A stretch of DNA of 64,000 bases. Source: Nitrospirota bacterium. Its GTDB lineage: Bacteria > Nitrospirota > Nitrospiria > Nitrospirales > Nitrospiraceae. The notes beneath the pieces were generated by a model. It had not been told where the DNA came from. It searched no databases and was given only the letters and a program-made list of their open reading frames with translations. Both the position numbers and the translations under genes were made by a program. Location of the stretch: assembly GCA_040755395.1 (NCBI GenBank), contig JBFMAX010000010.1, forward strand, positions 26,136 through 90,135. Reading direction: 5' to 3'. Shown here in pieces: positions 753-58,025 of this stretch (the first letter of the stretch is position 1; each line of letters begins with the position of its first letter).

Positions 753-824
753 GTGATGCGTGACGCGTGACGCGTCGAGTTCGTGCCTATCACGCCTCAC
801 GCATTACGTTTCACGCATCACGCC
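753..824. repeat. Heptamer-periodic inverted repeat array (GTGAYGC / TCACGCN)
   Basis: Left arm gtgatgc gtgacgc gtgacgc gtcgagt (753-780). Right arm tcacgcc tcacgca ttacgtt tcacgca tcacgcc (790-824). The arms are approximate reverse complements. The array fills the gap between the waaA start and the DUF374 stop. Confidence 0.8.
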
Positions 825-1473
825 TTCCGCTGTACGTCTTCATCCGCTTCCGCGGTGAGCCGGTTCAGCGCCGCTTCCAGTTCGGCACGCTTCACTTCCA
901 GGTCGGAATCGGTCGCATCAGCCGCCACCCAGATGGGCTGTCCCCACCGAAACAGCCCGCGCCCGAATGGAAGCGGGAGTTCGAAGCGATCCCAGCTTGC
1001 GAAGACTTTTTTTTTGAGCAGCTAAAGGCCACCGGCACGATCGGCAGGCCGGTCGCCTTGGCCAGTTGTACCACGCCGAGCTTGGCCACATACCTCGGCC
1101 CTTTCGGCCCGTCCGGCGTGACGGCGAGATCGGCGCCCGAGCGCCCCACCCGGATCAATTCACGCAAGGCCGCCGCCCCACCCCTTGTGCTGGATCCCCT
1201 CACGAAGCGTGCGCCGAACCGCTCGACAATCCGCGCGATGAGCTCGCCGTCGCGATGCCGACTGACCAGGGCGTACACGCCGGAACCTCGGTACGCGAGG
1301 GGCATCATGAGCTGGCGGTTGTGCCAGAACGCAAAGATGACGTGACGGCCCTCTCGGTGCAGCTTCTCGACGACCTCAGCTCCCTCATACCTGATCCTGA
1401 TGAGAACACCCAGTGTCCGGATCAGCCAGGCGCCGATCGGCGGGAAGAGCGCGAGCTTGAGCCAGTTGAACAT
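818..1473 (-). pseudogene. DUF374 (lysophospholipid acyltransferase-like) gene interrupted by a frameshift in an A9 tract
   Basis: Track ORF 892..1506 carries FAFWHNRQLMMP...VSRHRDGELIA...VTPDGPKGPRY. After ...PVAFSCSKKK the frame is lost in 9 A (9 T on the plus strand, 1007-1015). A one-base shift restores VFASWDRFELPLPFGRGLFRWGQPIWVAADATDSDLEVKRAELEAALNRLTAEADEDVQRKA*, ending at TGA 818-820. Start is taken at ATG 1473 (MFNWLKL); TTG 1506 adds only repeat-encoded residues. Confidence 0.7.
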
Positions 1474-1561
1474 CGTGAATCGTGAACCGTTATTCGTTAA
1501 TCGCAAAAGCGCCCTGGATTTCCGTCTCTCATGTTTTTCGTTTAACGAATCACGTCTTCAC
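1474..1561. repeat. Heptamer-periodic inverted repeat array (CGTKAAY / RTTMACG family)
   Basis: Left arm cgtgaat cgtgaac cgttatt cgttaat cgcaaaa. Right arm tttttcg tttaacg aatcacg tcttcac. It spans the DUF374 start and the msbA stop. Confidence 0.8.
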
Positions 1562-3281
1562 TCTGGAACTGCATCGCGTGGAGCCGTTTGTACAGCCCGT
1601 TTTGGCGGAGCAGGGTCTCGTGCGGGCCGATCTCGACGATCCGGCCCCGGTCCAACACGACGATCCGATCCGCATTTTGGATCGTCGAGAGCCGGTGGGC
1701 GATCACCAGCGTCGTGCGGTTCTTCATCAGGTTGGAGAGCGCCATCTGGACCACGCGTTCCGACTCCGTATCGAGCGCCGACGTGGCTTCGTCCAGAATC
1801 AGGATCGCGGGATCGCGCAAAATCGCCCGCGCGATCGCCAATCGCTGGCGTTCGCCACCGGACAGCTTGACACCGCGTTCGCCGATCAGGGTCTCGTAGC
1901 CGGAGGGCAGCCGCTCGATGAACTCGTGGGCATAGGCCAGCTTGGCGGCCTGAACGATCTCATCCTTCGTCGCATCCGGCCGGCCGTAGGCGATGTTCTG
2001 GGCGACGGACTCGTCGAACAGCACCACGTCCTGCGACACGATTCCGATCTGCGCCCGCAGCGATCGGAGCGTGCAGTCTCGGATGTCCACTCCGTCGATC
2101 AGAATCCGACCTTCGGTCGGCTCGTAAAAGCGAGGCACCAAGCTCACGAGCGTGGTTTTGCCGCTGCCGCTGCTGCCGACAAAGGCGACCGTCTCGCCGG
2201 CCCGAATCGAAAGGTCGATATCGGACAGCGCGTCCAAGCCGTGCCGCTCGTAGCGAAAGGTGACGCCTTTGAATTCCAACGCGCGCGCGATGGGAGACAG
2301 CTCGACATGTCCGCGGTCCCGATCCTGTTCGGTGTCCAGATCCAGCACTTCGAACACGCGTTCGGCCGCGGACAGCGCCTGCTGGATGGTGTTGTTCGCC
2401 CCGGAGAGCCGCCGGATCGGCGCATAGGCCATGAACATCGCCGCGAGAAACGAGAAGAAGGCCCCGGGCGTCATGGCGTCATGAATCACCAAGTACCCTC
2501 CGTACCACACGATACCGGCCACTCCGATAACGCCGATGACCTCCATGTGGGAGGATCCGAGGGATGAGACCTGGATCGCCTTCATCGTCGTCTGCAAGAA
2601 CGCTTTATTGCTGGCTCTAAAGCGAAGCGTTTCGGTCTCCTCCCGCCCGAACGCCTTCACCATCCGGATACCCGCCAAGGATTCCTGCAGCAATGACGCC
2701 ATGTCGCCGATCCGCTCCTGTCCCCTCGTCGCCAGATTCCGCAGCCGCTGGCCCATGCGAACCATCGTGTAGGCGGAGAGAGGGATGACGACGATCGAGA
2801 GGGCGGCGAGTTCCCAGTTCTGATAAAAGATCACGCCCAGCATCGCGACGAAGGTCAGGCCTTGCTGGAAGACATCCTTCAGCACCCCCGCCACCGCGTT
2901 GGCCATCAGGTTCACGTCGTTGATGACGCGCGACACGAGCCGGCCGGACGTATTGGCGTCGTGAAATCCGACGGGCAGGCGCAGCAGTTGCCCGAAGAGC
3001 GCCTGGCGGATATCCGTGATCACCTGATTGCCGACGTAATTCATGAGATAGTTTTGCCCGTAACTGAAGACGCCCTTCAGCACGGCCACGGCCAGAATGG
3101 CGAGCGGCAGGACGATCAGCAACGTCTCGTCCTTGTTGATGAAGATGCCGTCCAGGACCGGCCGCACCAGCCAGGCATAGGCGCCGGAAAGTCCGGCCAC
3201 CAGCGCGGCGCAGACGAACGCCGCCGCGAGCCGGACCCGGTAGGGCTTGAGATAGCCGATCAGCCGGAGAAACTGCTTCAT
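1542..3281 (-). CDS. msbA: Lipid A export ABC transporter permease/ATPase MsbA
   Basis: Six-TM exporter domain, Walker A GSSGSGKTT, signature LSGGERQR, Walker B ILILDEATSALD. ATG 3281 overlaps the lpxB stop (ATGA). GTG 3290 is an alternative start. Confidence 0.88.
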   Translation of the reverse strand: MKQFLRLIGYLKPYRVRLAAAFVCAALVAGLSGAYAWLVRPVLDGIFINKDETLLIVLPLAILAVAVLKGVFSYGQNYLMNYVGNQVITDIRQALFGQLLRLPVGFHDANTSGRLVSRVINDVNLMANAVAGVLKDVFQQGLTFVAMLGVIFYQNWELAALSIVVIPLSAYTMVRMGQRLRNLATRGQERIGDMASLLQESLAGIRMVKAFGREETETLRFRASNKAFLQTTMKAIQVSSLGSSHMEVIGVIGVAGIVWYGGYLVIHDAMTPGAFFSFLAAMFMAYAPIRRLSGANNTIQQALSAAERVFEVLDLDTEQDRDRGHVELSPIARALEFKGVTFRYERHGLDALSDIDLSIRAGETVAFVGSSGSGKTTLVSLVPRFYEPTEGRILIDGVDIRDCTLRSLRAQIGIVSQDVVLFDESVAQNIAYGRPDATKDEIVQAAKLAYAHEFIERLPSGYETLIGERGVKLSGGERQRLAIARAILRDPAILILDEATSALDTESERVVQMALSNLMKNRTTLVIAHRLSTIQNADRIVVLDRGRIVEIGPHETLLRQNGLYKRLHAMQFQSEDVIR

Positions 3282-4408
3282 ACGCGACACTCCGACAGCA
3301 CCACTTCGGCGGCGCGGCGCGACGCCCCCGGCTCACCCAGCGACTGCCTGACCGCGCGCAGCGCGGCCTTCATCTCATCATACGCGGTCATGTCGGTCAG
3401 CAGGCGGACCGCTTCCCGGTTCAGCCGTTCAGGCGTTGCATCCTGTTGAATCAGTTCCGGCACGATCTTTCGTCCCGCGACGAGATTCACCAGTCCGATG
3501 CAATCGACCTGGATCAGGGCGCGCGCGATCCAATACGTCAGCCGGGGAACCCGGTACAGGAGGATCATCGGCGCGCCGATCACCGCCGCCTGGAGCGTCG
3601 CCGTTCCGGAGGCGACGAACAACAGATCCGACGCCGCCATCACCTCGTTGGCCTGATCGCGCCGGACCCGTACGGTCACCGCCGCGTTGGTTAAGAGTTC
3701 CCGAATCAAATTATCCTGGATCGAGGACGCCTGAGCCAGCAGAAACTCGACTCCGGGCCGCTCGGACGCCAGACGCCGGGCCGCCTCCAGCATGACCGGC
3801 AACAGCGACCGGACCTCTCCCTCCCGGCTTCCCGGCAGCAACCCGATCACCGTTCCCGCCCGATCGACGCCGAACCGTTTGCGGAGCTCCGCCTGATCCA
3901 GGGCGGGGGCCACGGCATCCAGCAGGGGATGCCCGACGAAGGTACAGCGGACTCCGGCCCGGTGATACAGCGGCTCTTCGAACGGCAGAATGACCACCAC
4001 ATGGTCCACCCGTCGCTGCATCCATTTGATTCGGCGGGGCCGCCAGGCCCAGATCTGCGGCGCGATGTAGTACAGGACCCGCAGCCCCGCCGCCTTGGCC
4101 ACGCGCGCGAAATGCAGATTCAGGCCCGGGTTGTCGATCAACACGACGAGATCGAAGGATTCCGTGCGAAGCACGCGCCGGACGGCCAGGATCCGCCGGA
4201 GCATGACCGCGACGGCCGACGGACCGATCAGACCGATGATGTCGAGATGCGGAACGCCGGGCACCAGTTCCACCCCGGCTGCCCGCATGGACTCCCCGCC
4301 GATGCCCAGAATCGACAGGCCGGGGTCCAGCGCTTTCAGCGCCCGAGCCAGATTGGCCCCGTGCAGATCGCCGGAGGCTTCGCCGGCAATGATGAGGATG
4401 CGCGGCAT
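3278..4408 (-). CDS. lpxB: Lipid-A-disaccharide synthase LpxB
   Basis: N-terminus MPRILIIAGEASGDLHGANLARAL, 376 aa, typical of LpxB (GT19). Flanked by lipid A genes. Confidence 0.9.
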   Translation of the reverse strand: MPRILIIAGEASGDLHGANLARALKALDPGLSILGIGGESMRAAGVELVPGVPHLDIIGLIGPSAVAVMLRRILAVRRVLRTESFDLVVLIDNPGLNLHFARVAKAAGLRVLYYIAPQIWAWRPRRIKWMQRRVDHVVVILPFEEPLYHRAGVRCTFVGHPLLDAVAPALDQAELRKRFGVDRAGTVIGLLPGSREGEVRSLLPVMLEAARRLASERPGVEFLLAQASSIQDNLIRELLTNAAVTVRVRRDQANEVMAASDLLFVASGTATLQAAVIGAPMILLYRVPRLTYWIARALIQVDCIGLVNLVAGRKIVPELIQQDATPERLNREAVRLLTDMTAYDEMKAALRAVRQSLGEPGASRRAAEVVLSECRV

Positions 4409-4416
4409 GACAGAGC

Positions 4417-4511
4417 CGTTATTCGTTAATCGTTACACGTTAAACGGGAAGAAAAGAGGAATGAATGCTGATCGTCTTTCACGGTTAACGAATAACGTTT
4501 CACGCTTCACG
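4417..4511. repeat. Heptamer-periodic inverted repeat array (CGTKAAY / RTTMACG family)
   Basis: Left arm cgttatt cgttaat cgttaca cgttaaa (4417-4444). Right arm tttcacg gttaacg aataacg tttcacg cttcacg (4477-4511). cgttattcgttaa is the exact reverse complement of ttaacgaataacg. Confidence 0.85.
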
Positions 4512-5460
4512 CGTTCTCGTGGCGCCGCATGAATTCGCCGATCGCCTCCAGAATCTTATGGGCCAGCTCCAGCGCGGCGGCCCCGTCCTCGCCGGACACG
4601 ACGGGGCGTGACCCGGTCGAAACGGCCTGCAGAAAGGCCTCGAGCTGTAGTTTGAGCGGTTCCTCATCGCTCCCCTGGACGTTCTGGATGTCGAGCGTCG
4701 GCCGTTCACCCGGCTTCGTCACCCGCCGGCAGATCATCCCCTGGCGTGAGGAGAAATCGACGGAGACATACCTGTCGCGCTGAAAGACCCGCAGACGCCG
4801 CATCCGGTTCATCGACACCCGGCTGGACGTCAAATTGGCCACACAGCCGCTGCCGAACACGATCCTGGCGTTGGCGATATCGATGTTGGGCGAAAGCACC
4901 GGCACGCCGGCGGCCCGTATCTCTTCCACCGGACCAGGTTCGAATGAAAGGACCAAATCCAGATCATGGATCATCAGATCCAGAACAACGTCGACGTCCG
5001 TGCCCCGTTCGCCGAACGGGCTCAACCGGTGACATTCGATGAACCCCGGCCGGCCGATCGAGGATTGCACGGCCTGCATGACCGGATTGAACCGCTCGAT
5101 GTGGCCGACCTGCAGGAGACAGCCGTGCTTCCGCGCCAGCTCCACGAGGTCGCGGGCCTCGCCCGGCGTGACGGCGATCGGTTTCTCGACGAGCACATGC
5201 TTGCCCGCTTCAAGACAGGCCTTCACCACGGCGTAATGCGCCGACGTCGGCACGGCCACGCTGACCGCATCCACTTCCTTGAGCAACCGCTCACGATCGA
5301 GGAACGCCCGCACGCCATAGCGCTCCGCGATCACTCGGGCCCGTTCCGGATTCACATCCATGACGCCCGCGAGCGTCGAGCCGGCCAGGCTCGCATACAG
5401 GCGGGCATGATGCTGGCCCAGATGGCCGACTCCGATGACGCCGGTGCGTAGCTTCCGCAT
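4507..5460 (-). CDS. Gfo/Idh/MocA-family NAD(P)-dependent oxidoreductase embedded in the lipid A cluster
   Basis: Rossmann motif MRKLRTGVIGVGHLGQHHARLY. ATG 5460. The track start 5538 reads through the repeat array. Confidence 0.8.
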   Translation of the reverse strand: MRKLRTGVIGVGHLGQHHARLYASLAGSTLAGVMDVNPERARVIAERYGVRAFLDRERLLKEVDAVSVAVPTSAHYAVVKACLEAGKHVLVEKPIAVTPGEARDLVELARKHGCLLQVGHIERFNPVMQAVQSSIGRPGFIECHRLSPFGERGTDVDVVLDLMIHDLDLVLSFEPGPVEEIRAAGVPVLSPNIDIANARIVFGSGCVANLTSSRVSMNRMRRLRVFQRDRYVSVDFSSRQGMICRRVTKPGERPTLDIQNVQGSDEEPLKLQLEAFLQAVSTGSRPVVSGEDGAAALELAHKILEAIGEFMRRHENA

Positions 5461-5466
5461 AAACCC

Positions 5467-5570
5467 CGTTACTCGTGAAGCGTCAACCGTTAACCGTGAA
5501 GGCGAAGTGTGTCTTAGTGTGTCTTTATGGAGTGTCATCCCGGTTAACGAATAACGTTTAACGATGAACG
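5467..5570. repeat. Heptamer-periodic inverted repeat array (CGTKAAY / RTTMACG family)
   Basis: Left arm cgttact cgtgaag cgtcaac cgttaac cgtgaag. Right arm gttaacg aataacg tttaacg atgaacg. The spacer contains gtgtgtctt twice. Confidence 0.85.
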
Positions 5571-6385
5571 TCTCCGTACAGCCCGACGATCGCGATGCCC
5601 GCTTGCTCGGCCATGCGCACCGTGTCCTCCCGGTCCAGGAGCACGCTCTTGCCCGCCTCCAGCGCGAGCACCGCGGCTTTCACCGACTCCATGACCTCGA
5701 TCGTCCTGGGGCCGACCGCCGGCAGGTCGAAGCGAAGATCCTGCTGCGGCTTCGAGCGCTTGACCACCACCGCGCCCTCCTTGGCCAGTTCGCCTCCACG
5801 GCGGATGGCGCCGTCGGTCCCCTCGATCGCTTCGACCGCTACGACCACCCGGTCCTTCACGACGACGCACTGGCCGATGTCGAGTCGGCCGATCTCCCGC
5901 GCCACCTCCCAGCCGTAGCGCACGTCCTCCCATTCCTTTGTGCTGGGCTTCCGTTTGGTCACCGAGCCTTCTTCGACCAGGATGCCCTGCAGGCCGAACG
6001 TCGATTCCCGGATCGTGATCCCTTCGCTCTCCAACTCGGCCGCGATGCCTCGGAGGATGTCGTCGTCCTTCCATCGCGCCAACCGGGTGGCCAGCGCCAA
6101 CGCGCGGAAATCCGGCCGCACCGCGGTGAAGACGTGCGTCTTGCTGATGCCTCCCAGCATGACGGCCTGCCGCACGCCGTCTCCCTTCAGCGCGTTGATC
6201 AGCTTGTTGAACTGGCCGATCTTGATCCAATGGATCCGATCCACATGCTTCGCCAGTTCAGGGTCCGTCTCGCCCTCGTGCGCCACGGCCGAGACGGCGT
6301 AGCCCTGCTTCCTGGCGTTCTCGGCGAAAATGATCGGAAACCGGCCGTTGCCGGCGATCAATCCGATGCGTTCCCCGTGTCCCAT
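5558..6385 (-). CDS. lpxI: UDP-2,3-diacylglucosamine hydrolase LpxI (DUF1009 family)
   Basis: RIGLIAGNGRFPIIFAENARKQG ... MLGGISK ... IGQCVVVKD, 275 aa. Lies between lpxA and lpxB as in other LpxI-type clusters. Confidence 0.8.
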   Translation of the reverse strand: MGHGERIGLIAGNGRFPIIFAENARKQGYAVSAVAHEGETDPELAKHVDRIHWIKIGQFNKLINALKGDGVRQAVMLGGISKTHVFTAVRPDFRALALATRLARWKDDDILRGIAAELESEGITIRESTFGLQGILVEEGSVTKRKPSTKEWEDVRYGWEVAREIGRLDIGQCVVVKDRVVVAVEAIEGTDGAIRRGGELAKEGAVVVKRSKPQQDLRFDLPAVGPRTIEVMESVKAAVLALEAGKSVLLDREDTVRMAEQAGIAIVGLYGDVHR

Positions 6386-6419
6386 GATGTCCTGTTCAAC
6401 GGCGGGACGATCCCCGCCC

Positions 6420-7229
6420 CTATTCGTCCTCGTGCTCGTGCTCGACGTCGACCGAGCGGCAGATGCCGCGCTTGGTACCTTCCATGAACGCGACGACCTC
6501 CATCACATCCTTGCTGTCCTTGAACTGCTCGCGCGCCAGCTTGACGGCTTCGGCCATGCGATGGCCGGTGCGGAACAGCAGGTCGTATGCACGCTTGAGA
6601 GTCGCGATCCGGTCGCTGGAGAACCCGTGGCGTTTGAGCCCGATGTAGTTGATGCCGTACATCCGCGCCCGGTAGCCGCCGGCCGCCCGCATGAACGGCG
6701 GCAGATCCTGGCCCAGCGCCGAACACCCGCCGACCATCGCGTAGGCGCCGATCCGCACGTATTGATGAATGCCGGACAGGCCGCCGATGATGGCATGGTC
6801 CCCGATGGTGATGTGGCCGGCCAGGCTGGCGGCGTTCGCCAGGATCAGATGGCTGCCCAGATGGCAATCATGGGCGACATGGACGTAGGCCATCAGGAAA
6901 TTGTGATGGCCGATCGACGTGAGGCCGCCGCCCTGGGCCGTCGCGCGATTGACCGTGACGTATTCGCGCAGGATATTGTCGTTCCCGATGACGACGCGGG
7001 TCGGCTCGCCCTTGTACTGCAGATGTTGCGGGGGACCGCCGATCGAGGCGAACGGAAACAGCTCGCACCGCTCGCCGATCTCCGTCCACCCTTCCACGCA
7101 CACGTGCGACATCAGCCGCGTGCCGCGCCCGATCTTGACGTGCTCGCCGACGACGCAAAACGGTCCCACGACGACATCCTCGGCCAGCTCGGCCTTGGGA
7201 TGCACAACTGCGGTCGGATGAATGTTCAC
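6420..7229 (-). CDS. lpxA: Acyl-ACP--UDP-N-acetylglucosamine O-acyltransferase LpxA
   Basis: NIHPTAVVHPKAELAEDVVVGPFCVVGEHVKIG hexapeptide beta-helix repeats, 269 aa, GTG start. Confidence 0.9.
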   Translation of the reverse strand: MNIHPTAVVHPKAELAEDVVVGPFCVVGEHVKIGRGTRLMSHVCVEGWTEIGERCELFPFASIGGPPQHLQYKGEPTRVVIGNDNILREYVTVNRATAQGGGLTSIGHHNFLMAYVHVAHDCHLGSHLILANAASLAGHITIGDHAIIGGLSGIHQYVRIGAYAMVGGCSALGQDLPPFMRAAGGYRARMYGINYIGLKRHGFSSDRIATLKRAYDLLFRTGHRMAEAVKLAREQFKDSKDVMEVVAFMEGTKRGICRSVDVEHEHEDE

Positions 7230-7241
7230 TCGTGTACCTCC

Positions 7242-7321
7242 CGTTAATCGTTAACCGTTATTCGTTAACCGCCTTGGGTGCGCAGACCTTGCGCTTCACG
7301 TTTAACGTTTAACGATTCACG
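7242..7321. repeat. Heptamer-periodic inverted repeat array (CGTKAAY / RTTMACG family)
   Basis: Left arm cgttaat cgttaac cgttatt cgttaac. Right arm cttcacg tttaacg tttaacg attcacg. Lies between the lpxA start and the fabZ stop. Confidence 0.85.
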
Positions 7322-7767
7322 TCCTCCGTTTTCTCTTCCGTCACCATCGCGGTCAATTCCGCCTCGCAGACCAGGTCCTCTTCCACGTAGGCCTTGGCCC
7401 GCATCTTCCAGAACGGCGGCCGCTTCTTGAGCACTTCGACCTCGAATCGCAGTTGATCGCCGGGAATGACCGGCTTGCGGAACTTGGCGTGATCCACCCC
7501 CGTCAGATAGACCACCGGGCGCCCGGTTTGCGCCAGGGATTTGAAAGCCAGCACGCCGCCCACTTGGGCCATCGCTTCGAGAATGAGCACGCCGGGCATG
7601 ACCGGGCGGTTCGGGAAATGCCCCTGAAAGAACTGTTCGTTGATCGTGACGTTCTTGATTCCGACGACCCGCCGGTCCAATTCCAACTCGCGAATCCGGT
7701 CCACCAGCAGAAACGGATACCGGTGCGGGAGCAAGGTTTGGATGTCCACGTTCTCCATCGCTGCCAT
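7309..7767 (-). CDS. fabZ: 3-hydroxyacyl-ACP dehydratase FabZ
   Basis: [14 protein letters not shown] ... [23 protein letters not shown] 7767 is preceded by GAGGAGG. TTG 7794 (track start) is an alternative. Confidence 0.9.
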
Positions 7768-7797
7768 TTCCGCTGCCTCCTCAGCTCGGTTCAAGAA

Positions 7798-7888
7798 GGT
7801 TTATTTGGTCTATCGTGTGTCTTTGGTGCGGAAGCATCTCGATCCGGCCGACCCAATAAACCAAACGAACTACATGAACCAAACAAAC
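7798..7888. repeat. Inverted repeat of the TTGGTnn / nnACCAA family
   Basis: ggtttatttggt (7798-7809) pairs with acccaataaacc (7851-7862), followed by aaacgaactacatgaaccaaacaaacc. The spacer contains gtgtgtcttt, as in 5501-5525. Confidence 0.5.
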
Positions 7889-7896
7889 CGGTGTTG

Positions 7897-8439
7897 CTAC
7901 CGGTTCTGCCGGTCGAACTCCTTGACCACTTTGTCCGTCAGATCGAGCCCCGGCTGATGATAGATGACGATTTTGATGTTGGCTTCGTTGCCCTTATCCA
8001 GCACGGCGGCGTACCCTTCCCGCTCCGCGACGGCCAGCGCGGCCTTCTGGATCTTCTTCGAATATTCCGCCACCATCTCGCGCTGCTTCTCCTGCACCTC
8101 GCGATTGAACTCCTGCACGCGACGCTGATAGGCCTCGAATTTCGCGCGCAGCAGTTCCTGCTTTTCCCGTCTGGCAGCCTCGCTGAGCGTGTTGTTCGGG
8201 TCCTGGAGGGATCGTTCGATCGACTTCAATTCTTGATCGTCGGAGTCGACGATTTTCTGGCGGGTTGCGGAAAAGCTCCGCAGTTCTTCCAGGGCCCGTT
8301 TCCCCGTTTTGGACTTTTCCATGACGACCTGCTGGTCGATCACCGCCACTTTGAACGACTCCGCCGCCGACGAACAGCCCGACCAATGTTCCAGCAACGC
8401 GATGCAGACCACTACCGGCAGAAGAGGTCCCGGCTTCAT
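7897..8439 (-). CDS. OmpH/Skp-like periplasmic chaperone, lipoprotein-type signal
   Basis: MKPGPLLPVVVCIALLEHWSGC followed by a K/E/Q-rich coiled region. GGAGG lies before ATG 8439. The track start 8529 is upstream. Confidence 0.75.
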   Translation of the reverse strand: MKPGPLLPVVVCIALLEHWSGCSSAAESFKVAVIDQQVVMEKSKTGKRALEELRSFSATRQKIVDSDDQELKSIERSLQDPNNTLSEAARREKQELLRAKFEAYQRRVQEFNREVQEKQREMVAEYSKKIQKAALAVAEREGYAAVLDKGNEANIKIVIYHQPGLDLTDKVVKEFDRQNR

Positions 8440-8520
8440 CCTCCGCCCCTCATCGATTCCGTTCACGCTTACTCGCACACCATGTCCCCGTTTCATCCTG
8501 GAGCTTGATCGTGGAAGAGC

Positions 8521-8588
8521 GAGAGGCAAGGGGCTCGGGGCGAGGGGGAAGAGACTCCGACCTCTAGCCTCGGGCCTCGGGCCTATCG
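8521..8588. repeat. Heptamer-periodic G-rich / C-rich repeat arms (GGC/GCC family)
   Basis: Left arm gagaggc aaggggc tcggggc gaggggg. Right arm cctctag cctcggg cctcggg cctatcg. Confidence 0.6.
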
Positions 8589-8600
8589 GTTCAGAACAGC

Positions 8601-9200
8601 TTACGGAAATTCTTTATTGAACTCCTGGATGACACGGTCCGAGATATCGACGGACGCGTCGCTGTACACCGTCGGCCCGCCCCGCCCCTTTTCGATCACC
8701 ACCTGCAAGCCCAACTGCTTGGCGACTTTGGCCGTCACCGTCTCGATTTTCTCGCGGAACCCGTCCAGGACATCCTTCTGTTTCTCCTGCACTTCCCGGT
8801 TCAACTCGGCGGCCTTTTGCTGATATTCGGCCATGCGACGACGAAACTGCTCTTCGCGTTCCCGCTTCGCCGCCGCGCTCAGGACACTGGCCTGTTTGAC
8901 GAAATCCTCTTCCATCCGCCGGAGCTCTTTCTCGTCCAATTCGATGAGCGCCTGCCGATTTTTCGTGAACGTCTCCAGGGATTCCTTGGCTTTCTTGCCC
9001 GCGGACGTCTCGTTCAGGATCCGTTGCGGATCGATGACGCCCACGCGGCCTTCCGGCTGCGTCCCCGCTGCCGCGCACCCGACGAGCGCCGCAAGCGCGA
9101 CCGTCGTGACTGCAAGTCCCGCGGCCCGGCGACAGCTCGCCCGCACCGCCGGCTTGCCGTCCCCCGCCGGACTTTCCCGCCGATCTCTTTCAACGTTCAC
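8601..9200 (-). CDS. Second OmpH/Skp-like chaperone, lipoprotein-type signal
   Basis: Only the last ~200 codons of track ORF 8601..10016 are plausible. They read ...AAGLAVTTVALAALVGCAAAG, then IDPQRILNETSAGKKAKESLETF... GTG 9200 follows AGGGAGG. ATG 9224 is an alternative that overlaps the bamA stop. Confidence 0.7.
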   Translation of the reverse strand: MNVERDRRESPAGDGKPAVRASCRRAAGLAVTTVALAALVGCAAAGTQPEGRVGVIDPQRILNETSAGKKAKESLETFTKNRQALIELDEKELRRMEEDFVKQASVLSAAAKREREEQFRRRMAEYQQKAAELNREVQEKQKDVLDGFREKIETVTAKVAKQLGLQVVIEKGRGGPTVYSDASVDISDRVIQEFNKEFP

Positions 9201-9223
9201 GCTCACCTCCCTATGGACACGCA

Positions 9224-11611: not shown

Positions 11612-11784
11612 CGGAGCCCTTCCCGATCATCCGGGTGCTCCGGCATCCACGCAACGCCCGCCGCATGCCGAGCGGCTCCGCGGAGTTGAGCGCCGGACGC
11701 GTAGACGCTTGCGGCGGCGAGCAAACTCCTCTTCAATCGTCCCTCCATCGACGCCAGACCTCAAAGGCGTTGAAAAACTTGTGA

Positions 11785-11813
11785 ATTATATTGATCGACG
11801 TGCGCAATGTAAA
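11785..11813 (-). promoter_or_regulatory. Sigma70-type promoter facing bamA
   Basis: Minus strand TTTACA-17 nt-TATAAT. Lies ~170 nt upstream of the bamA start. Confidence 0.5.
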
Positions 11814-11848
11814 GAAGTTTCCTGCAGGGGCGGCCTCGCGCGCTCGCC

Positions 11849-11877
11849 TTGACTTCCCGTACCCCATCACATACTAT
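11849..11877 (+). promoter_or_regulatory. Sigma70-type promoter of galU (likely leaderless transcript)
   Basis: TTGACT-17 nt-TACTAT. The -10 element ends 7 nt before ATG 11885 and no SD is possible. Confidence 0.5.
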
Positions 11878-11884
11878 CGGCCGC

Positions 11885-19080: not shown

Positions 19081-19221
19081 TCAGAGACAGCCATTTTTCC
19101 ACTGCTCATCCGTTGCGCTCACCTGCCGAGCTTGGCCATGCTGAAAAGGGGCGGGAGTCTTTTATCGGCTGTCGTAGCCTTCACGCTTTGTAGGCATAAC
19201 TACAATTGGGCATGGCGTGAT

Positions 19222-19608: not shown

Positions 19609-19725
19609 CGCGAGCCTCCTATTCGAACAAGGGGTGAGTATGAAGCCCACAGGGACGGTCAGCAGCGTGAAAATGACGCTCAAAAGGCCACGGGATGATT
19701 CTGCATGACATTCCTCCTCTGTGGA

Positions 19726-19806: not shown

Positions 19807-19812
19807 TGTCGT

Positions 19813-20704: not shown

Positions 20705-20710
20705 GAACCA

Positions 20711-42209: not shown

Positions 42210-42273
42210 CTATCAGACTTCAGCCGTCAGTTTTCAGCGGAGATTCTTTCATGCTGACAGCCGACCGCTGACA
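42210..42273. repeat. Heptamer-periodic inverted repeat array (nnnTCAG / GCTGAnn family)
   Basis: Left arm ctatcag acttcag ccgtcag ttttcag. Right arm gctgaca gccgacc gctgaca. Confidence 0.8.
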
Positions 42274-47981: not shown

Positions 47982-48057
47982 GCCTGGACGTTGCCCCGTC
48001 ACGCGCGAACCGTTGTCCACAATGACACACTGAGACACACTGAATAATCAACGATAA

Positions 48058-49726: not shown

Positions 49727-49761
49727 GGCTGATAGCGAATAGCCGTCAGCGGTCAGCTTTG
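49727..49761. repeat. Short heptamer-periodic array (AGCnnnn)
   Basis: ggctgat agcgaat agccgtc agcggtc agctttg. Confidence 0.55.
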
Positions 49762-49764
49762 GCG

Positions 49765-49802
49765 GACGGGCCAAGCGGGCACCCGCTTGGCCCGTCGTTT
49801 TT
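49765..49802 (+). terminator. Intrinsic terminator of groEL
   Basis: gacgggccaagcggg-ca-cccgcttggcccgtc (15-bp stem) followed by GTTTTT. Lies between convergent groEL and glnE-N. Confidence 0.8.
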
Positions 49803-51505
49803 CACCCCCGCTTCAGGGCCCGCACGGCCGCCCGCAGCAGGCGAGAGCGGCCCGGCGTAAAGAAGAGTCGGCGGAACATGGCGTTGACGCGTTCCGTGTG
49901 GCGGCGATAGTCCGCAGTGAAGCGATCCACGGCTGTCTTTCGGTCGCGTCCGGCGTAGCCGAGCCGGATCGCGCAACGCTGTAACTCTTCTTCGGTCTCC
50001 GGCAACGCATGGGTTTGGAGGTCATGCACCATCTGCAGTTTGTGTTCCACATCGCGTAGAAAGACATAGGCCGCCGCCAGCGCCGACTGCTCCGTCGCCG
50101 ACAACAACCCCAGTTGCCGGAATCGACCCAGCGCTCCCAGAGTGCTGCGGTCCAGAATGCGCGGCAGGACTTTCCCGCATATCACCTGGACCGTTTGGAC
50201 GAGAAATTCGATTTCCCGAATCCCTCCAATGCCCAGCTTGACATTCCGCCGCTCATGACCGCGGTCGGCCATTTTCCCGTCGATCAGATCTTTGACCGCT
50301 CGCACCTCTTTCAGAACAGCCTGGACGTCCGCGCCGCGCTGTGAAGGCTCGGGACCGCCAAGAACGAAGGGCCGCGTGAGGCGCAGAAAGGCGCGCCCGA
50401 CCTCTCGGGAGCCGGCGACCGGCCAGGCCTTGAGCAGCGCGAGACGTTCCCACACTTCCCCCCTCGTCCGATAGTACCGGGCATAATCCTCCAAGGATCT
50501 CGCCAACCGCCCGACTGATCCCTCGGCGCGAAGCCTCAGATCCACACGAAAGACATGGCCTTCCCGCGTCGGAGCCGCAAGCGCCTGCGTCAGACGACGT
50601 GCAAGCTGTTCGAAATACTCTTCGTTGGAGAGTTCCTGCCGCACTCCTCGGGCGCTTCCGGCATCGGATGCATACACGTAAATCAGATCGACGTCGGAGC
50701 TGTAGTTGAGCTCTCCCCCGCCGAGTTTGCCCATGCCGATCACGGCAAATCCGGTTTCCACCGTCCGTCCCTTGGCGTCGCGGTGCATCGGGACTCCGTA
50801 TTTCCGTCGCAGGTCCTCCTCGACGATTTCGTATGCAGCCTGGATCAGAACCGCGGCGAGATCGGAGAGGGCGGCGGTGGTGTCCGGCACATCGTCCAGG
50901 CCCAGCAAATCGCGCACGCCGATGCGCAACATCTCCCGGCGACGGAACCGCCTGAGGGCTTCCAGCTTGAGCTCGACCGTCGTCAGGTTGGCCAAAGTCC
51001 GGCGCAGCGCTTGGTCCAAGGACGCGCGCGTCGGCCGTCTTGTCAGGACCTGCTCCTCTATCAGCCAATAGACGAGCAGCGGATCGCGGATCAGCGTCTG
51101 GGCGAGCGAATCGCTGTTGCCGAAAATCACGCACAGAAGATGCAACATGCGGGGCGAGCCATGCAGATATTCGAACAGCGCCGCACGGTTGATGCCGGAC
51201 TGTAGAAATCGCTCCCAATGATTCAATGCCTGGTCCGGATCGGCGGTCCGCGCAACGGATTCCAGCAGATCGCCCAACATCTTCGCCAAGAGATGCCGCG
51301 TGCGGGGTTCTCCGGCCATCGCTTGGATGTTGGCGTCGGCCTGCGCGACATCGGTCAGCCCGTAAGGCTTGAGGATGGCAGCGACTTCGCCGGAATCGAG
51401 TCTGGGCGCCAACAGGAGCGCGCTCGGGTCTGATGATCGCGCGTCGAGTTGAGACACCACCGGTCCTGTGCGCAGAGGGCGGGACACCGAAGCCTTCCGT
51501 GTCAT
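49802..51505 (-). CDS. glnE: GlnE N-terminal-half homologue (adenylyl-removase-type nucleotidyltransferase module) as a separate gene
   Basis: 567 aa. [22 protein letters not shown] matches the N-terminal NT motif of full-length GlnE ([20 protein letters not shown]). Confidence 0.75.
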   Translation of the reverse strand: [567 protein letters not shown]

Positions 51506-51575: not shown

Positions 51576-51657
51576 GCTGTCAGCTATCAGTCATCAGCTC
51601 TGAGCTTTATATCGAACGCTCTGTTCTTGGCTGAACGCTGAGAGCTGACGGCTAAGA
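51576..51657. repeat. Heptamer-periodic repeat array (GCTnnnn / nnnTCAG family) in the divergent glnE intergenic region
   Basis: Left arm gctgtca gctatca gtcatca gctctga gctttat. Right arm gctgaac gctgaga gctgacg gctaaga. Confidence 0.8.
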
Positions 51658-51669: not shown

Positions 51670-53928
51670 ATGACGATTGAAGAACGCATCAATGCGCTCA
51701 AGCTGCTGTGCCCCGATGTAGCGGAAGATATCCTGCGCGATTTCGTGTCGCGCATGGACCCCGACTACTTCGCGCACGTCCGGCCCGACGACATGGCGCG
51801 ACACGTCCGGCTCGCGTCGCGCCTGGACCCGGACCGCCCCTGCCAAGTCCACATTCAGCCCAAGGAAGACCCGTCGTTCGAGGTCGTGGTCGTCGCCTAC
51901 GACTACTTTTCGGAGTTCGCCACGATCTGCGGGCTGCTGTCCGCTTTCGGGCTCGACATCCAGGAAGGGCGTATCTACACGTTCTCCGACGCGGCGCCCG
52001 CCGTTGCGCCGCACATCGGATCGACATGGCCGTCGCGCCGCCCCAAAGCGCGTCCCGGCCTTGCGCGAAAAAAGATCGTCGATCTCTTTCGGGTTCGCCC
52101 CATGCCCGGCGTCGCGTTTTCTCCAGAGGAGCAACGCCGCCTGAGCGACGAATTGGACCGCATGATCCGCCTGCTGGATGCGCGGCAGTTCGAGCAGGCG
52201 CGCCAGCACGTGAACCGGCAGTTGGTCGAACGGCTCGGCAAACAGCGGGGCACCTTCACCGGCCTGCTGCAACCGGTTCAGATCACCTTCGACAACAGCC
52301 AGTCCGCGACCGACACGATCATGGACATCCGCTCGGACGACACGCCCGCGTTCCTGTATGCGTTCGCCAACGCGCTGGCCATGCGGAACGTCTACATCAC
52401 CAAAGCCCAGTTCGAGAACGTGGGTCCGAAGCTCCATGACCGCTTTTACGTCCGCGACCGTAACGGGCAGAAGATCGTCGATCCGGATGAACAGCAGAAC
52501 CTCCGGATCACCGCGGTCCTGATCAAACAGTTCACCCACGCGCTCACCTGGGCCCCCGACCCTGCAAAAGCGATCGAAGCCTTCGATCAGTTTCTGGACT
52601 TGATCCTCAAAGACGAGCGGGGTTCCAAGCGTCAAAAGGGCCTCGACTTCGTCAAAGACAAGAGGTCCTTTCCCCTGCTGGCCCACCTGCTGGGCGCCAG
52701 CGATTTCCTGTGGGAAGATTTCCTGCGCCGGCAGCATACCAATCTCCTGCCGATGCTGGAGACCTATCGGGTCGAGCCGCTCATCAAATCGAAGCAGGAG
52801 CTGGACAAGATCCTTCGGCGGCGCTTGGCGACCTGCAGAACCGACGAGCGGCGGCGGCAGGCGTTGAACCAGTTCAAGGACGAAGAGCTGTTCCGGATCG
52901 ACATGAAGCATCTTCTCGATCCCTCCACGAGCCTTGCCGACTTTTCGTTGGCCCTCACCCAGTTGGCCGAAGCCATCGTAAGTCGGAGCGTGACGGACTG
53001 CCGCGCGAAATTGGATCGTCTTCACGGCCGGCCGAGGCTCCCCGACCGCCGCCTTTGTCCATTCACGGTGCTGGGGATGGGCAAATTCGGCGGCCGTGAA
53101 CTGGGCTACGCCTCCGACATCGAAGTGCTCTTCGTCTATGGAGGCCCCGGCCGGACCGACGGCAGACACCCGCTGGACAACAGCGAGTACTTCGAACGGC
53201 TGGTCCAGGAACTCTTACGCTGGATCGAAGCCAAGCAGGAAGGGATTTTCCACCTGGATGTGCGCTTGCGGCCGCACGGGAGCAAGGGATCGCTGGTCAA
53301 CGCCCTCGACGAAGTCCGGACGTACTACAGTCCCGCGGGGCTGAGCGCCCCGTTCGAGCGGCAGGCGCTCATCAAGCTGCGCTACGTGGCCGGAGACGAG
53401 GGCTTGGGACGGCAGGTCGAAGCGCACCGCGATGCGTTCGTGTACAGTGGAGCGCCGTGGGATCTGGCGACGGCCCTCGACCTTCGGCGGCAGCAGGTGA
53501 AGGAACTGGTCGAACCGGGACGGATCAACGTGAAATACAGCCCGGGCGGGCTGATCGACGTGGAGTACGCCGTCCAGTATCTCCAACTGATGTACGGCCA
53601 TCAGCATCCGACGCTGAGAACCACGAACACGATGGACGCGCTGGCGGCCTTGGTCGAGACGGGACTGGTCGCCCGCGACGACGGTCTGCGTCTGCGCAAG
53701 GCCTACCTGTTTTTCAGAACTCTGATCGACGGGTTGAGGATGGTGCGGGGAAATGCAAAGGATCTGGTGCTGCCCGAGCCGGAATCGGACGACTTCGTAT
53801 TCCTCGCCCGGCGCGTCGGGTACACCGCCGAGGACTGGCAGGCCGGCGCAAGCCACTTACAATCCGACCTCGCCCGCCATATGGCCGACACCCGGGCGTT
53901 TTTCGAGCGACGGTTCGGCGCGGTCTGA
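51670..53928 (+). CDS. glnE: ACT-ACT-GlnE C-terminal-half (adenylyltransferase-type module) fusion protein
   Basis: 752 aa. Two ACT-like units: FEVVVVAYDYFSEFATICGLLSAFGLDIQEGRIYTF and TIMDIRSDDTPAFLYAFANALAMRNVYITKAQFEN...FYVRD. These are followed by GMGKFGGRELGYASDIEVLFVY, resembling the C-terminal NT motif of GlnE. Confidence 0.75.
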   Translation: MTIEERINALKLLCPDVAEDILRDFVSRMDPDYFAHVRPDDMARHVRLASRLDPDRPCQVHIQPKEDPSFEVVVVAYDYFSEFATICGLLSAFGLDIQEGRIYTFSDAAPAVAPHIGSTWPSRRPKARPGLARKKIVDLFRVRPMPGVAFSPEEQRRLSDELDRMIRLLDARQFEQARQHVNRQLVERLGKQRGTFTGLLQPVQITFDNSQSATDTIMDIRSDDTPAFLYAFANALAMRNVYITKAQFENVGPKLHDRFYVRDRNGQKIVDPDEQQNLRITAVLIKQFTHALTWAPDPAKAIEAFDQFLDLILKDERGSKRQKGLDFVKDKRSFPLLAHLLGASDFLWEDFLRRQHTNLLPMLETYRVEPLIKSKQELDKILRRRLATCRTDERRRQALNQFKDEELFRIDMKHLLDPSTSLADFSLALTQLAEAIVSRSVTDCRAKLDRLHGRPRLPDRRLCPFTVLGMGKFGGRELGYASDIEVLFVYGGPGRTDGRHPLDNSEYFERLVQELLRWIEAKQEGIFHLDVRLRPHGSKGSLVNALDEVRTYYSPAGLSAPFERQALIKLRYVAGDEGLGRQVEAHRDAFVYSGAPWDLATALDLRRQQVKELVEPGRINVKYSPGGLIDVEYAVQYLQLMYGHQHPTLRTTNTMDALAALVETGLVARDDGLRLRKAYLFFRTLIDGLRMVRGNAKDLVLPEPESDDFVFLARRVGYTAEDWQAGASHLQSDLARHMADTRAFFERRFGAV

Positions 53929-56280: not shown

Positions 56281-56320
56281 GGGTTCCTCCCACAACAGGC
56301 GATGGGCACGAGGCAAGTGG

Positions 56321-56381
56321 CTAGATGCGGAGAACGATTGCTTTTTCCTCTAGCCTCTAGCCCATCTCGTCCCTAGCCTCC
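56321..56381. repeat. Heptamer-periodic repeat (CCTCTAG family) with a partial inverted arm
   Basis: Left ggctagatgcggag. Right ctctagc ctctagc ccatctc gtcccta gcctccc. Confidence 0.6.
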
Positions 56382-56383
56382 CA

Positions 56384-57421: not shown

Positions 57422-57927
57422 CCCGTCCACCAGCTCTTAGCTATCAGCCTTCCGCTGCCAGCTTCCCCTACATTCTCCTCCTCCTTCATTTGAATATTCA
57501 CGTACAACTGACCGTTGCGTCTCACGACCTGATAGCGATCCAGCGGGCGCGGCGGCGGGCCGGCGATGTTGCGCCCGGTTTTGTCGAACACGCCCTGGTG
57601 GCACGGACACACGAACTGCCCGCGTTCCTTGCTCCAAGAAACCAGACAGCCGAGATCAGTGCAGCGCCGGGAAAAGGCCGTGATCCCTTCCTCGGTCTTG
57701 AGCACCATGATCTTATGACCGCCGAGATTCATCGGCACCGGTTCGCCCATCGGCACGCGCGCTTCGGCTCCGATCAAGACCGCTTCGTACTGTCTCGGCT
57801 TTTGGCTCGGCACCAGGAACTGCATAAAACGCAGCGCCAGCGCGCCCATCCCGAAGAGCGCCCCGAACGCCATCACGGCCTGGCTCAGAAACCGGCGCCG
57901 CCCGATGTCGTTGTGAATCACAGCCAT
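57418..57927 (-). CDS. Rieske-type [2Fe-2S] protein with an atypical box I (C-T-D-L-G-C)
   Basis: Twin-arginine signal GRRRFLSQAVMAFGALFG. Box I is CTDLGC (tgc act gat ctc ggc tgt, read directly) and box II is CPCH. Confidence 0.85.
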   Translation of the reverse strand: MAVIHNDIGRRRFLSQAVMAFGALFGMGALALRFMQFLVPSQKPRQYEAVLIGAEARVPMGEPVPMNLGGHKIMVLKTEEGITAFSRRCTDLGCLVSWSKERGQFVCPCHQGVFDKTGRNIAGPPPRPLDRYQVVRRNGQLYVNIQMKEEENVGEAGSGRLIAKSWWTG

Positions 57928-57943
57928 GGGAACCGCCGGGAAT

Positions 57944-58025
57944 CGTTCATCGTGAATCGTGAATCGGAGAGGCCTTTCTTACGTTTAACGAATAACGTTT
58001 CACGTTTAACGTCGTCACGAATACG
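57944..58025. repeat. Heptamer-periodic inverted repeat array (CGTKAAY / RTTMACG family)
   Basis: Left arm cgttcat cgtgaat cgtgaat. Right arm tttaacg aataacg tttcacg tttaacg tcgtcacg aatacg. Confidence 0.85.

Follow-up and report, generated by a model that had tools for sequence, protein, structure and literature searches.

The DNA analysed here, called the window below, is a stretch of 64,000 nucleotides (nt) from contig JBFMAX010000010.1 of a Nitrospirota bacterium of the family Nitrospiraceae. Many of the junctions between its genes carry an element composed of two arrays of tandem heptamers, in which the second array, or arm, is the reverse complement of the first and a short spacer lies between the two. 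The gene map of the window was built from codon usage and checked with Pfam. On this map positions 1-11611 form a minus-strand operon, termed the lipid A operon in the following, that comprises bamA, two skp genes, fabZ, lpxA, lpxI, a gene for a Gfo/Idh/MocA oxidoreductase (gfo/idh), lpxB, msbA, a DUF374 gene and kdtA. The operon is preceded, upstream of bamA, by a sigma-70-like promoter. The LpxB protein of the window shares 93, 91 and 89% identity with its counterparts in three metagenome-assembled Nitrospiraceae genomes and 64% with that of Nitrospira moscoviensis. Loci from related genomes and metagenome contigs that were compared with the window are labelled L001 and so on.

Period-7 arrays in the window

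The array sites consist of three to six heptamers in a row with a fixed core of 3-5 nt, such as CGTGAAT CGTGAAC CGTTATT CGTTAAT at 1474 or CGTTCAG CGTTCAG CTTTCAG CAATCAG CCGTCAG at 33737. Tandem Repeats Finder reports a period of 7 at 14 arms (753, 789, 1472, 4417, 5544, 7242, 7298, 8519, 8567, 32872, 33737, 56347, 57940 and 57981), with degenerate units (matches of 71-100%, mostly 71-85%). Stretches with at least 16 of 21 matches at lag 7 occur 13 times in the window, against about 0.2 times in third-order Markov simulations, and at lags 5, 8, 10 and 11 the window has none. When all intergenic sequence is pooled, the match frequency peaks at lags 7, 14 and 21 (0.282, 0.281 and 0.276, against about 0.26; z = 4.2 against shuffles). 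The coding sequence of the window shows the 3n codon signal alone, with no peak at lag 7, which agrees with the view of an earlier note on this DNA that the period is not codon-based. At least five unrelated heptamer families (GTGA, CTGA, CGTTAA, GGC-rich and TTGGTTT) are present within 64 kb. The spaced motif CTGA-N3-CTGA-N3-CTGA has 12 matches where 0.29 are expected, on both strands and at 33.7, 42.2 and 51.6 kb.

With a threshold of at least 13 of 21 matches, 16 of the 45 intergenic gaps of at least 20 nt score at lag 7, compared with one to three of 45 at other lags and 12 of 225 gene-interior segments (5%). By orientation these are 14 of 35 co-directional, one of six divergent and one of four convergent gaps, and the 14 co-directional ones separate genes of housekeeping operons (lipid A/bamA, thiSGE, ftsEX, ffh-rpsP and a bc-type complex). 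The earlier note had placed the architecture at most intercistronic junctions. The arrays are real, but they occupy about a third of all gaps, though seven of ten junctions in the lipid A operon. A scan of the whole window with Rfam 15 gave nothing at gathering score, and a tRNA scan gave no match.

Nothing was found that would favour an assembly artefact, which we regard as next to impossible. An independent Logan assembly, of run SRR29635775, is identical to window positions 1-8572, elements included, although it possibly derives from the same source sample, and 80 other assemblies, among them the complete N. moscoviensis chromosome, carry the architecture. An exact-protein look-up found one identical contig; in a metagenome scan with the Gfo/Idh protein for strains of the same species, the closest match had 72% identity.

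Anatomy of the elements

In the CGTKAAY and GCGTGAn families, read in mRNA sense, the array begins in the last codons of the upstream gene, whose stop codon is the TGA or TAA of a unit. After a spacer of 13-60 nt the second arm ends 0-15 nt before the start codon or right before the Shine-Dalgarno (SD) site, as with GGGAGG at lpxA. The arrays thus abut stop and start codons as first described, and they do inflate calls of open reading frames (ORFs): TTAACGAATAACGTTTCACGCTTCACG at 4485-4511 reads LTNNVSRFT. Fold scores (z) given below for single elements are relative to dinucleotide shuffles.

Within the lipid A operon, the GCGTGAn/nTCACGC pair at 753-824 (arms 753-777 and 789-824; detected by Tandem Repeats Finder; z = -4.68) lies just upstream of the kdtA start codon at 744. 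Next to it, a 36-codon ORF, MAADATDSDLEVKRAELEAALNRLTAEADEDVQRKA, at 928..818 on the minus strand extends, in a different frame, over the end of the DUF374 gene. Its TGA (818-820) is located just 5' of the first heptamer unit of 753-824 in mRNA sense and in phase with it, and the ORF is apparently conserved at the amino-acid level in L001, L002 and L008; it might represent either a small gene or a C-terminus shifted out of frame. The msbA-DUF374 junction holds a CGTKAAY/RTTMACG pair at 1474-1561 (arms 1474-1503 and 1531-1561; z = -2.85), with the msbA stop codon inside an arm and the start-proximal arm ending at the ATG. Further CGTKAAY pairs lie between gfo/idh and lpxB at 4417-4511 (arms 4417-4446 and 4481-4511; z = -1.88) and between lpxI and gfo/idh at 5467-5570 (arms 5467-5499 and 5543-5570; z = -2.85). 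Both arms of the former contain the 13-mer CGTTATTCGTTAA; the exact reverse complementarity noted before between 4417 (plus) and 4485 (minus) was confirmed, and four further sites of the 13-mer were found. In the spacer of the latter, a 10-nt exact direct repeat, AGTGTGTCTT, stands twice at 5506-5525. The fabZ-lpxA pair, of the CGTTAAY type, spans 7242-7321 (arms 7242-7271 and 7293-7321; z = -3.38), with the SD site GGGAGG and then a GTG start after it; across the family this is the junction most often occupied. The skp-fabZ junction carries a TTGGTTT/AAACCAA-type pair at 7798-7888 (z = -1.61), and the junction between the skp paralogue and skp a GGC-rich/GCC-rich pair (GAGGGGC/GCCTCGG, CCTCTAG) at 8521-8588, which Tandem Repeats Finder detects at 8519 and 8567 and which folds weakly (z = -1.03).

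Outside the lipid A operon, the thi genes carry two elements, an nnnTCAG...CTGAnnn pair between thiS and thiG at 33737-33818 (z = -4.95) and a GCGTGAn/nTCACGC pair with one degenerate arm between thiG and thiE at 32828-32906 (z = -2.03). A GC-rich GGCGAGn/nCTCGCC pair at 38801-38900 separates a UPF0102 (yraN-like) gene from ftsE (z = -2.85). Between ffh and rpsP lies a TCAG...CTGA pair at 42210-42273 (z = -3.50), with the SD site GGAGG and the start about 35 nt further on. Another TCAG...CTGA pair, at 51576-51657 (z = -5.20), occupies a divergent gap and ends 12 nt before the ATG at 51670 of a plus-strand glnE/glnD-like gene. Two such GlnE/GlnD-like nucleotidyltransferase genes stand back to back here (49802-51412, minus; 51670-53928, plus). 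Elements are found as well in a cluster for an ammonium transporter, a Rieske protein, cytochrome b and a multihaem cytochrome c: a CGTKAAY pair between the ammonium transporter and Rieske genes at 57944-58025 (arms 57944-57968 and 57981-58025; z = +0.88), in which both arms are present and pair poorly in the prediction, and CTAGAGG/CCTCTAG-type arrays between the cytochrome b and cytochrome c genes at 56321-56381 (Tandem Repeats Finder at 56347; z = +0.60). The latter have no hairpin support of their own; the whole gap 56296-56383 has z = -4.4 against mononucleotide shuffles. Two sites that had been counted with the families are arrays without being full pairs. One is a rudimentary, short CTGA/TCAG-type run at 49727-49761, after the groEL stop and directly before an intrinsic terminator (49765-49796). 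The other, at 57431-57465, is a single-arm array of nAGCTGn units (mRNA sense) at the junction where the Rieske and cytochrome b genes overlap; its successive units contain TGA, TAG and TAA, and a partner arm was not seen.

Predicted folding and the case against terminators

Either strand of an element is predicted to be capable of folding into one long stem, built of 4-7 bp helices that are interrupted every 7 nt by internal loops of 1-2 nt. Against dinucleotide shuffles the 15 window elements score between -5.2 and +0.9, with 11 of 15 at or below -1.88. The potential for the long imperfect hairpin that had been proposed for each junction is real in the aggregate and at most junctions, but it is uneven, and the elements at 57944-58025 and 56321-56381 fold no better than shuffles. 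In 170 instances of four junctions taken from related genomes, the dominant predicted hairpin covers the whole gap (median span/length 1.0); its 5' end lies a median of 14 nt upstream of where the stop codon ends, and its 3' end a median of 8 nt short of the start codon. Just 3' of the stem, the SD site is for the most part unpaired, so that the element apparently does not occlude it. We had considered SD sequestration and rejected it on these grounds.

Stable stem-loops between genes could also be transcription terminators or attenuators within operons. We consider this very unlikely. None of the elements is followed by a T-tract, and in positions 1-12000 terminator-like matches are not enriched (10 against 10.9 expected), with none of them being an element stem. 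The genome does have a textbook terminator, the one after groEL (49765-49796), and the genes on either side of an element belong to one pathway and would be expected to share a transcript.

Arm order, cores and a recurring module

The two arms do not occur in random order. GTGA...TCAC was found in 26 cases and the reverse in none, TCAG...CTGA in 8:0, CGTT...AACG in 4:0 and GTCA...TGAC in 6:2. The order is absolute for GTGA...TCAC and TCAG...CTGA, and it is family-dependent. The arrangement of the arms is identical on both strands, and hence the direction of transcription or replication cannot explain it; stem stability likewise cannot. The cores are not arbitrary either. Among 561 period-7 core hits GTGA accounts for 98, CTGA for 36 and GTCA for 33, together 30%, against a background of about 0.8% each. 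A stop trinucleotide is contained in 75% of unit consensuses, compared with 52% of shuffled units, and at operon junctions the stop-proximal arm holds the sense-strand stops in 27 (+8) cases against 4. A general rule that the arm with the stop codons always comes first was tried and rejected: it is true of the GTGA type, reversed in TCAG...CTGA, and in the GTCA type the TGA arm is second.

Within this genome, a module of four units, CGTKAAn CGTKAAn CGTTATT CGTTAAY, recurs in five of six aligned arms from five junctions. It is carried by 1474-1561 and also by 57944-58025, which is 50 kb away from the lipid A junctions. All module-bearing arms are 5' arms, with CGTTATT-CGTTAAY next to the loop, and their flanks and spacers are unrelated. 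The 13-mer of the module is absent from 87 other Nitrospiraceae loci.

The elements in related genomes

The comparison covered 1.29 Mb of sequence from 80 genomes of Nitrospiraceae, one of them the complete N. moscoviensis chromosome. Arrays were called where the same 4-mer stands at i, i+7 and i+14, a strict detector that replaced a 12-of-14 lag-7 detector, which was too insensitive. It gave 172 arrays at lag 7, against 24-32 at lags 4, 5, 10, 11 and 13 and 54 at lag 8, and the enrichment that a genome-wide check was meant to reveal thus holds among the relatives. A minority of arrays have a period of 8 (the 54 at lag 8 compare with about 27 at control lags), for example CAATGATT units at the msbA-DUF374 junction of L005. 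Neighbouring arrays form inverted pairs: 13 of 23 adjacent pairs are reverse complements within one mismatch, where 6% would be expected, and none is a direct pair. The two arms of an element are reverse-complement arrays of one family, as had been proposed.

Occupancy is specific to the junction. The pooled lag-7 match frequency is 0.377 at fabZ-lpxA, 0.327 at lpxI-gfo, 0.317 at gfo-lpxB and 0.304 at msbA-DUF374, compared with 0.25-0.27 at bamA-skp, skp-skp, skp-fabZ and lpxA-lpxI, three of which usually have gaps of at least 45 nt. At lpxB-msbA almost all genomes have an ATGA overlap. One and the same junction can hold differing families in different genomes, and both arms then switch together. 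At fabZ-lpxA the window has CGTTAAA|TTTAACG, L001 has AGCGAAT|ATTCGCT, L005 GTGATGn|nCATCAC, L008 GTCAAnC|TTGACGn and N. moscoviensis GTGACnC|GTCACTC. The idea that each genome uses its own families was rejected, as families are shared at 7.7% within and 8.0% between genomes; only specific multi-unit strings are genome-specific.

Replacement is seen between close relatives. The flanking proteins of the window and of L001-L003 are mostly 87-98% identical (78-84% for DUF374), and at several junctions these relatives have a different family or no element. In L001 the element at 5467-5570 is missing and lpxI and gfo/idh overlap by ATGA. Sequence similarity is lost 15-20 nt ahead of the stop codon and picks up again at the SD site or start, so that the break points lie at the edges of the arrays. 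Homologous elements are kept at skp-fabZ, where 7798-7888 is 93.7% identical to L001 over 111 nt, and at skp-skp. The arms of 753-824 are 96-97% identical to L001, with the spacer replaced. The elements thus evolve in a bimodal way, since over larger distances the arms can be the conserved part. The arms of 5467-5570 are 84-91% identical to those of L012 around an unrelated spacer, although the LpxB proteins are only 69% identical. The fabZ-lpxA element is 55-75% identical, with its unit order kept, among genomes in which the fourfold-degenerate sites of lpxA are saturated (0.33-0.50).

The architecture may not be confined to the Nitrospiraceae. Metagenome contigs whose Gfo homologue is only 41-54% identical have paired inverted heptamer arrays too (53 arrays at lag 7, about 17 at control lags), and this points to an architecture that may be widespread outside the family. 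Examples are CGTTGTC...CAACGGA in L095 and AGATTTT...AATCTGC in L150; among L088-L160 paired arrays lie, for instance, in L095 at 8604-8680, L128 at 48-126 and 3819-3905, L141 at 12052-12266, L146 at 1688-2848, L150 at 1274-1365 and L151 at 31-120. A different kind of array, (ACGAGAT)n in one orientation, is located directly upstream of the gfo/idh start in L002 (about 8944-8971), L003, L005, L060 (13649 and 19671) and L079 (2611). It lacks an inverted partner, and none of its frames contains a stop codon.

Elements that reach into reading frames

One pair listed before as a junction element, TTGGTTT/AAACCAA at 585-640 (arms about 585-606 and 617-640; z = -2.35), in fact lies in frame within kdtA (waaA), where it encodes GWFGSFGAMGSQPGQPNKP. 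The kdtA ORF is open from 744 to 1 on the minus strand, and its Pfam Glycos_transf_N match spans the heptamer insert. The insert falls in a linker of the N-terminal part of KdtA/WaaA, between RCRRGL.QRLG and PVIW.HAVSLGE, that varies from 54 to 90 residues across the Nitrospiraceae (window 560-744, minus; L001-L080 at about 13.8-14.4 kb). The variation stems from an inverted heptamer pair inserted in frame, of a family without stop codons in the three frames, whose additional residues are (GLSGLFG..)n and then (RPDRPNKPD..)n. This intragenic copy stays in frame in every genome. At thiS, the ORF (33768-34028, minus) runs 15 codons, AVSHQRSALSGWDLR, past its Gly-Gly end (..FIGGG), crossing the TCAG arm and stopping at a TGA of the CTGA arm. 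Since a free C-terminal Gly-Gly is normally required in ThiS, either the tail is removed or the thiS gene is affected.

Short tandem repeats whose unit number differs between relatives might act as slipped-strand contingency switches, with phase variation by unit number, and slipped-strand variability had been put forward as a candidate function. We find this highly improbable. Degenerate units suppress slippage, the flanking genes are housekeeping genes, and the arrays lie after stops and before SD sites, not in promoter spacers nor, with the one exception in kdtA, in frames. Stops in all three frames would make a change of 7 nt silent for the upstream protein, and the sole intragenic copy keeps its frame.

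Other features of the window

A Pup-proteasome operon at 25649-31977 (minus) encodes a proteasomal ATPase, two proteins of the Pup-ligase family and two proteasome subunits, presumably prcB and prcA. Its gaps are short and free of heptamer arrays; they seem to leave no room for a pup ORF, which was not searched for. ORFs at 19100-22300 have no Pfam match and a weak coding signal and adjoin a hybrid histidine kinase gene. The G+C content is lower, at about 57-59%, at 18-20 and 22-24 kb, overlapping part of this region, which may be foreign or fast-evolving DNA. Upstream of groEL, a 10-nt exact direct repeat, GACACACTGA, stands twice at 48024-48043.

Discussion

The reading that we favour, and hold tentatively, is that these are palindromic elements akin to the repetitive extragenic palindromic (REP) sequences and bacterial interspersed mosaic elements (BIMEs), with heptamer arrays as arms, copied at the level of DNA and probably acting as stem-loops in intercistronic mRNA. 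The anatomy and the copying in DNA are backed by the results above, and the role in mRNA is suggested by their position, by their conservation at fixed junctions and by the analogy to REP. The element fills the gap between two cistrons of an operon, with the first arm usually supplying the upstream stop codon and the spacer forming the loop. Its arms would be made and renewed in DNA, by slippage of units and by copying of whole modules between arms and junctions. We infer that these two processes together could produce an arm order that is fixed, modules that are specific to one genome and the replacement of entire elements in close relatives. In the polycistronic mRNA the stem-loop would act like a REP sequence, as a barrier to 3' exonucleases or as a determinant of processing or stability. 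As a structured spacer, rich in G and poor in C, it would stop translation in all frames and keep the following ribosome-binding site accessible, and folding would bring the upstream stop codon beside the downstream start. Terminators, phase variation and an assembly artefact are essentially excluded as explanations.

Several observations speak for a maintained complementarity. Cognate arms of the GTGA family form a more stable pairing (-26.6 kcal/mol) than non-cognate ones do (-22.4 kcal/mol; p = 5e-4), and in a conserved clade alignment 89% of cells are paired, compared with 29-55% when partners are slid. A test of array-to-flank duplexes was significant but was set aside, having little power in a genome of 60% GC, where only 22% of arrays beat the 5% control tail. 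The pairing is coarse, matched at the level of the family or subfamily and not base by base. Judged from the sequence data, complementarity is maintained; the same data do not single out RNA as the reason.

A number of points weigh against our interpretation. The cognate arm of the CGTKAAY elements in the window pairs no better than arms from other junctions, and two elements, 57944-58025 and 56321-56381, fold no better than shuffles. The conserved clade has 2 compensatory pairs only, with no excess over shuffles and thus no covariation at the level of nucleotides. Of the co-variation between arms that was expected, what remains is that arms change together as whole arrays between genomes. In 199 junction instances under a strand-neutral fold, mismatches of the G·U type are about as frequent as those of the A·C type (111:104 in symmetric loops, 37:31 in isolated 1x1 loops), and an excess of G·U was seen in one clade alignment only (16:4). 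In 113 of 169 cases the sense strand does give a more stable fold than its complement (113:56, p = 3e-8). However, this advantage may be compositional and stem from G-rich unpaired positions; unpaired positions are purine-rich, with 397 purine-purine against 161 pyrimidine-pyrimidine oppositions. We have set it aside as evidence for RNA, there being no matching excess of G·U over A·C. Some genomes lack an element at a given junction and have a short gap or an ATGA overlap instead, so that the element is dispensable. A role in intercistronic RNA makes no sense for the in-frame pair in kdtA. Finally, no REP-associated tyrosine transposase (RAYT) and no IS200-type transposase was seen among the roughly 49 window proteins scanned.

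The same observations lend weight to a different view, in which the elements are selfish or neutral palindromic microsatellites. They would arise by heptamer slippage and quasi-palindrome correction through template switching, and persist where they do no harm, without a cellular function; the hairpin would be a means of propagation and not a device of the cell. The lack of a G·U excess and of base-level covariation fits this, as do the in-frame copy in kdtA with its very variable length, which resembles the Rickettsia palindromic elements, the arm that extends the thiS frame, and the gain, loss and replacement of elements between close relatives. The exact fit to stop and start codons would be trivial if the gap consisted of nothing but the insert. 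According to Mrazek 2007, as cited in PMC4679880, the heptamer is the commonest prokaryotic repeat unit of 5-11 nt, which has been put down to polymerase slippage. Against this view, the same four junctions are occupied across the family and gaps of similar size in the same operon are not. Arm sequence and unit order are conserved far beyond the saturation of synonymous sites with spacers left free, and random slippage with arm correction does not predict an absolute arm order. We regard this view as unlikely.

Rather unlikely, too, is that the arrays serve as binding sites of a protein which recognises a short core at intervals of 7 nt, with the hairpin being incidental or in competition with binding. 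The target could be single-stranded RNA, bound by a cold-shock protein, an S1-type protein or a HutP-like oligomer, or it could be DNA, along the lines of the integration host factor (IHF)/HU idea from Geobacter metallireducens. HutP binds UAG triplets 4 nt apart, that is, with a period of 7. The cores (GTGA, CTGA, GTCA) are non-arbitrary, the same repertoire is found in all genomes, and unit order is conserved. Moreover, single-arm arrays exist, namely (ACGAGAT)n before gfo in five genomes and 57431-57465 in the window. The start-proximal CTGA arms resemble the TAACTGA repeats upstream of Beggiatoaceae start codons (PMC4679880). However, the many unrelated families in one genome would need many proteins, and the family at one junction switches between close relatives. 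Spacers that vary between 13 and 60 nt are easier to reconcile with a loop than with a dimer bound to duplex DNA, a period of 7 bp is out of phase with the DNA helix, and no candidate protein was identified.

One could go further and imagine a dedicated machinery that reads the hairpin in a 7-nt register, such as a hairpin-specific transposase or recombinase for single-stranded DNA or an oligomeric protein that binds RNA or single-stranded DNA. It would write or copy the arrays, impose the arm order and install the modules, and the elements would be a widespread domesticated class that sets the expression of neighbouring cistrons. This we think doubtful. If true, it would offer a possible explanation for the heptamer repeats of cyanobacteria, Beggiatoaceae and Geobacter.

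Relation to known repeats

Arrays of the same architecture have been annotated before. The G. metallireducens genome holds paired tandem repeats described as "putative global regulator binding sites", for which binding of IHF/HU was proposed (Aklujkar et al. 2009, PMC2700814). Class consensuses are GTTGCTYN, TCTCCGTS[Y] and MTYCTGA, the last (class 3) with five tandem heptamers and 8 pairs on opposite strands, and they were described as unique to one species (PMC2700814). Like our elements, they have at least three (3-5) tandem units of 7-9 nt, a variable spacer and the same units on the opposite strand; there are several classes per genome, in intergenic positions (one pair lies between proB and proA), and one class has a CTGA core. 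The minority of period-8 arrays in the Nitrospiraceae recalls the octamer class of Geobacter. The units differ: here they are nnGCTGA, CGTKAAY, GCGTGAn/GTGAnnn, GGC-rich and TTGGTTT, with only the CTGA core in common. Also, the architecture is family-wide and positionally conserved here, and stop embedding, arm order and hairpins were not reported there. The earlier note held that such elements had not been described for this lineage. We found no paper that links Nitrospira with heptamer repeats in the literature searched, and a 2025 survey lists 3,788 generic palindromes in N. moscoviensis without noting a periodicity, but the annotation from 2009 means that the architecture is not new in kind. 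What is new here is its family-wide extent, its persistence at specific junctions, the absolute arm order, the copying of modules, the embedding of stop codons and the in-frame copy.

The analogies to REP/BIME elements and to the short tandemly repeated repetitive (STRR) sequences, suggested at the outset, are reasonable, the former for extragenic palindromes and the latter for intergenic tandem heptamers. The REP/BIME elements of enterobacteria and pseudomonads are likewise imperfect palindromes in extragenic positions between cistrons and at the 3' ends of operons, with many copies and genome-specific sequence families, and gene conversion or copying has been proposed for their evolution. 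A REP unit, in contrast, is a unique sequence of 20-40 nt with a genome-wide consensus and no 7-nt period, compared with 60-100 nt and periodic internal loops here; here only a module of 28-30 nt is common to five junctions. REPtrons are defined by a conserved 5' GTAG and a cognate RAYT transposase. In the 64-kb window, no Y1_Tnp match was obtained among about 49 proteins, and no GTAG was seen at the edges of the elements. According to a passage in PMC12306157 that summarises earlier work, REPs stabilise mRNA, and REPs within 15 nt of a stop codon stall ribosomes.

Among tandem heptanucleotides, the similarity is to the STRRs and long simple sequence repeats in general (Mrazek 2007), which are mostly intergenic and occur in several families per genome, with seven as the favoured length of the unit. 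The STRRs of heterocystous cyanobacteria are direct arrays of near-perfect heptamers. Our elements differ from them in the degenerate units, the inverted partner arm, the fixed arm order, the stop-start fit, the unit sequences and the lineage. The TAACTGA repeats of marine Beggiatoaceae, cyanobacteria and Bacteroidetes (MacGregor 2015, PMC4679880) comprise 169 direct sets and one inverted set; they stand just upstream of start codons, have stops in all three frames and often lack an SD site. Shared with our CTGA arms are the CTGA-core heptamers near starts, the stops in frames and an occasional overlap with the end of the upstream ORF. However, those repeats consist of one exact heptamer, with related heptamers rare, and the CTGA arms here have an inverted TCAG partner. 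Tandem TAACTGA, TAACTGATAACTGA, has no match in the window at fewer than 2 mismatches, and its count is not above that of shuffles. For the intragenic kdtA copy alone, the Rickettsia palindromic elements (RPEs) offer a parallel, being palindromic in-frame inserts that add a tolerated peptide segment. RPEs are conserved palindromes of 100-150 bp in protein genes without a heptamer period, whereas the kdtA insert is a heptamer pair of variable length at one KdtA linker.

Significance

Catalogues of tandem heptamer repeats in bacteria go back to about 1990, and to our knowledge no function has been demonstrated for them. The elements described here provide handles that earlier cases lacked: their junctions are fixed and belong to an essential, conserved operon, the order of their arms is absolute, and the arms are conserved while the loops drift. 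Sister genomes with an ATGA overlap at the same junction are natural "knock-outs", and N. moscoviensis is a culturable host with a complete genome. For annotation, the elements corrupt gene calls, through LTNNVSRFT-like C-terminal tails, the overrun of thiS by 15 codons and the variable KdtA linker; they may also break short-read assemblies and could be of use as rapidly evolving markers of strains. If mRNA stability or the coupling of stop and start is tuned by the stem-loops, these would help nitrite oxidisers and their comammox relatives to set the ratios of the enzymes encoded in an operon.

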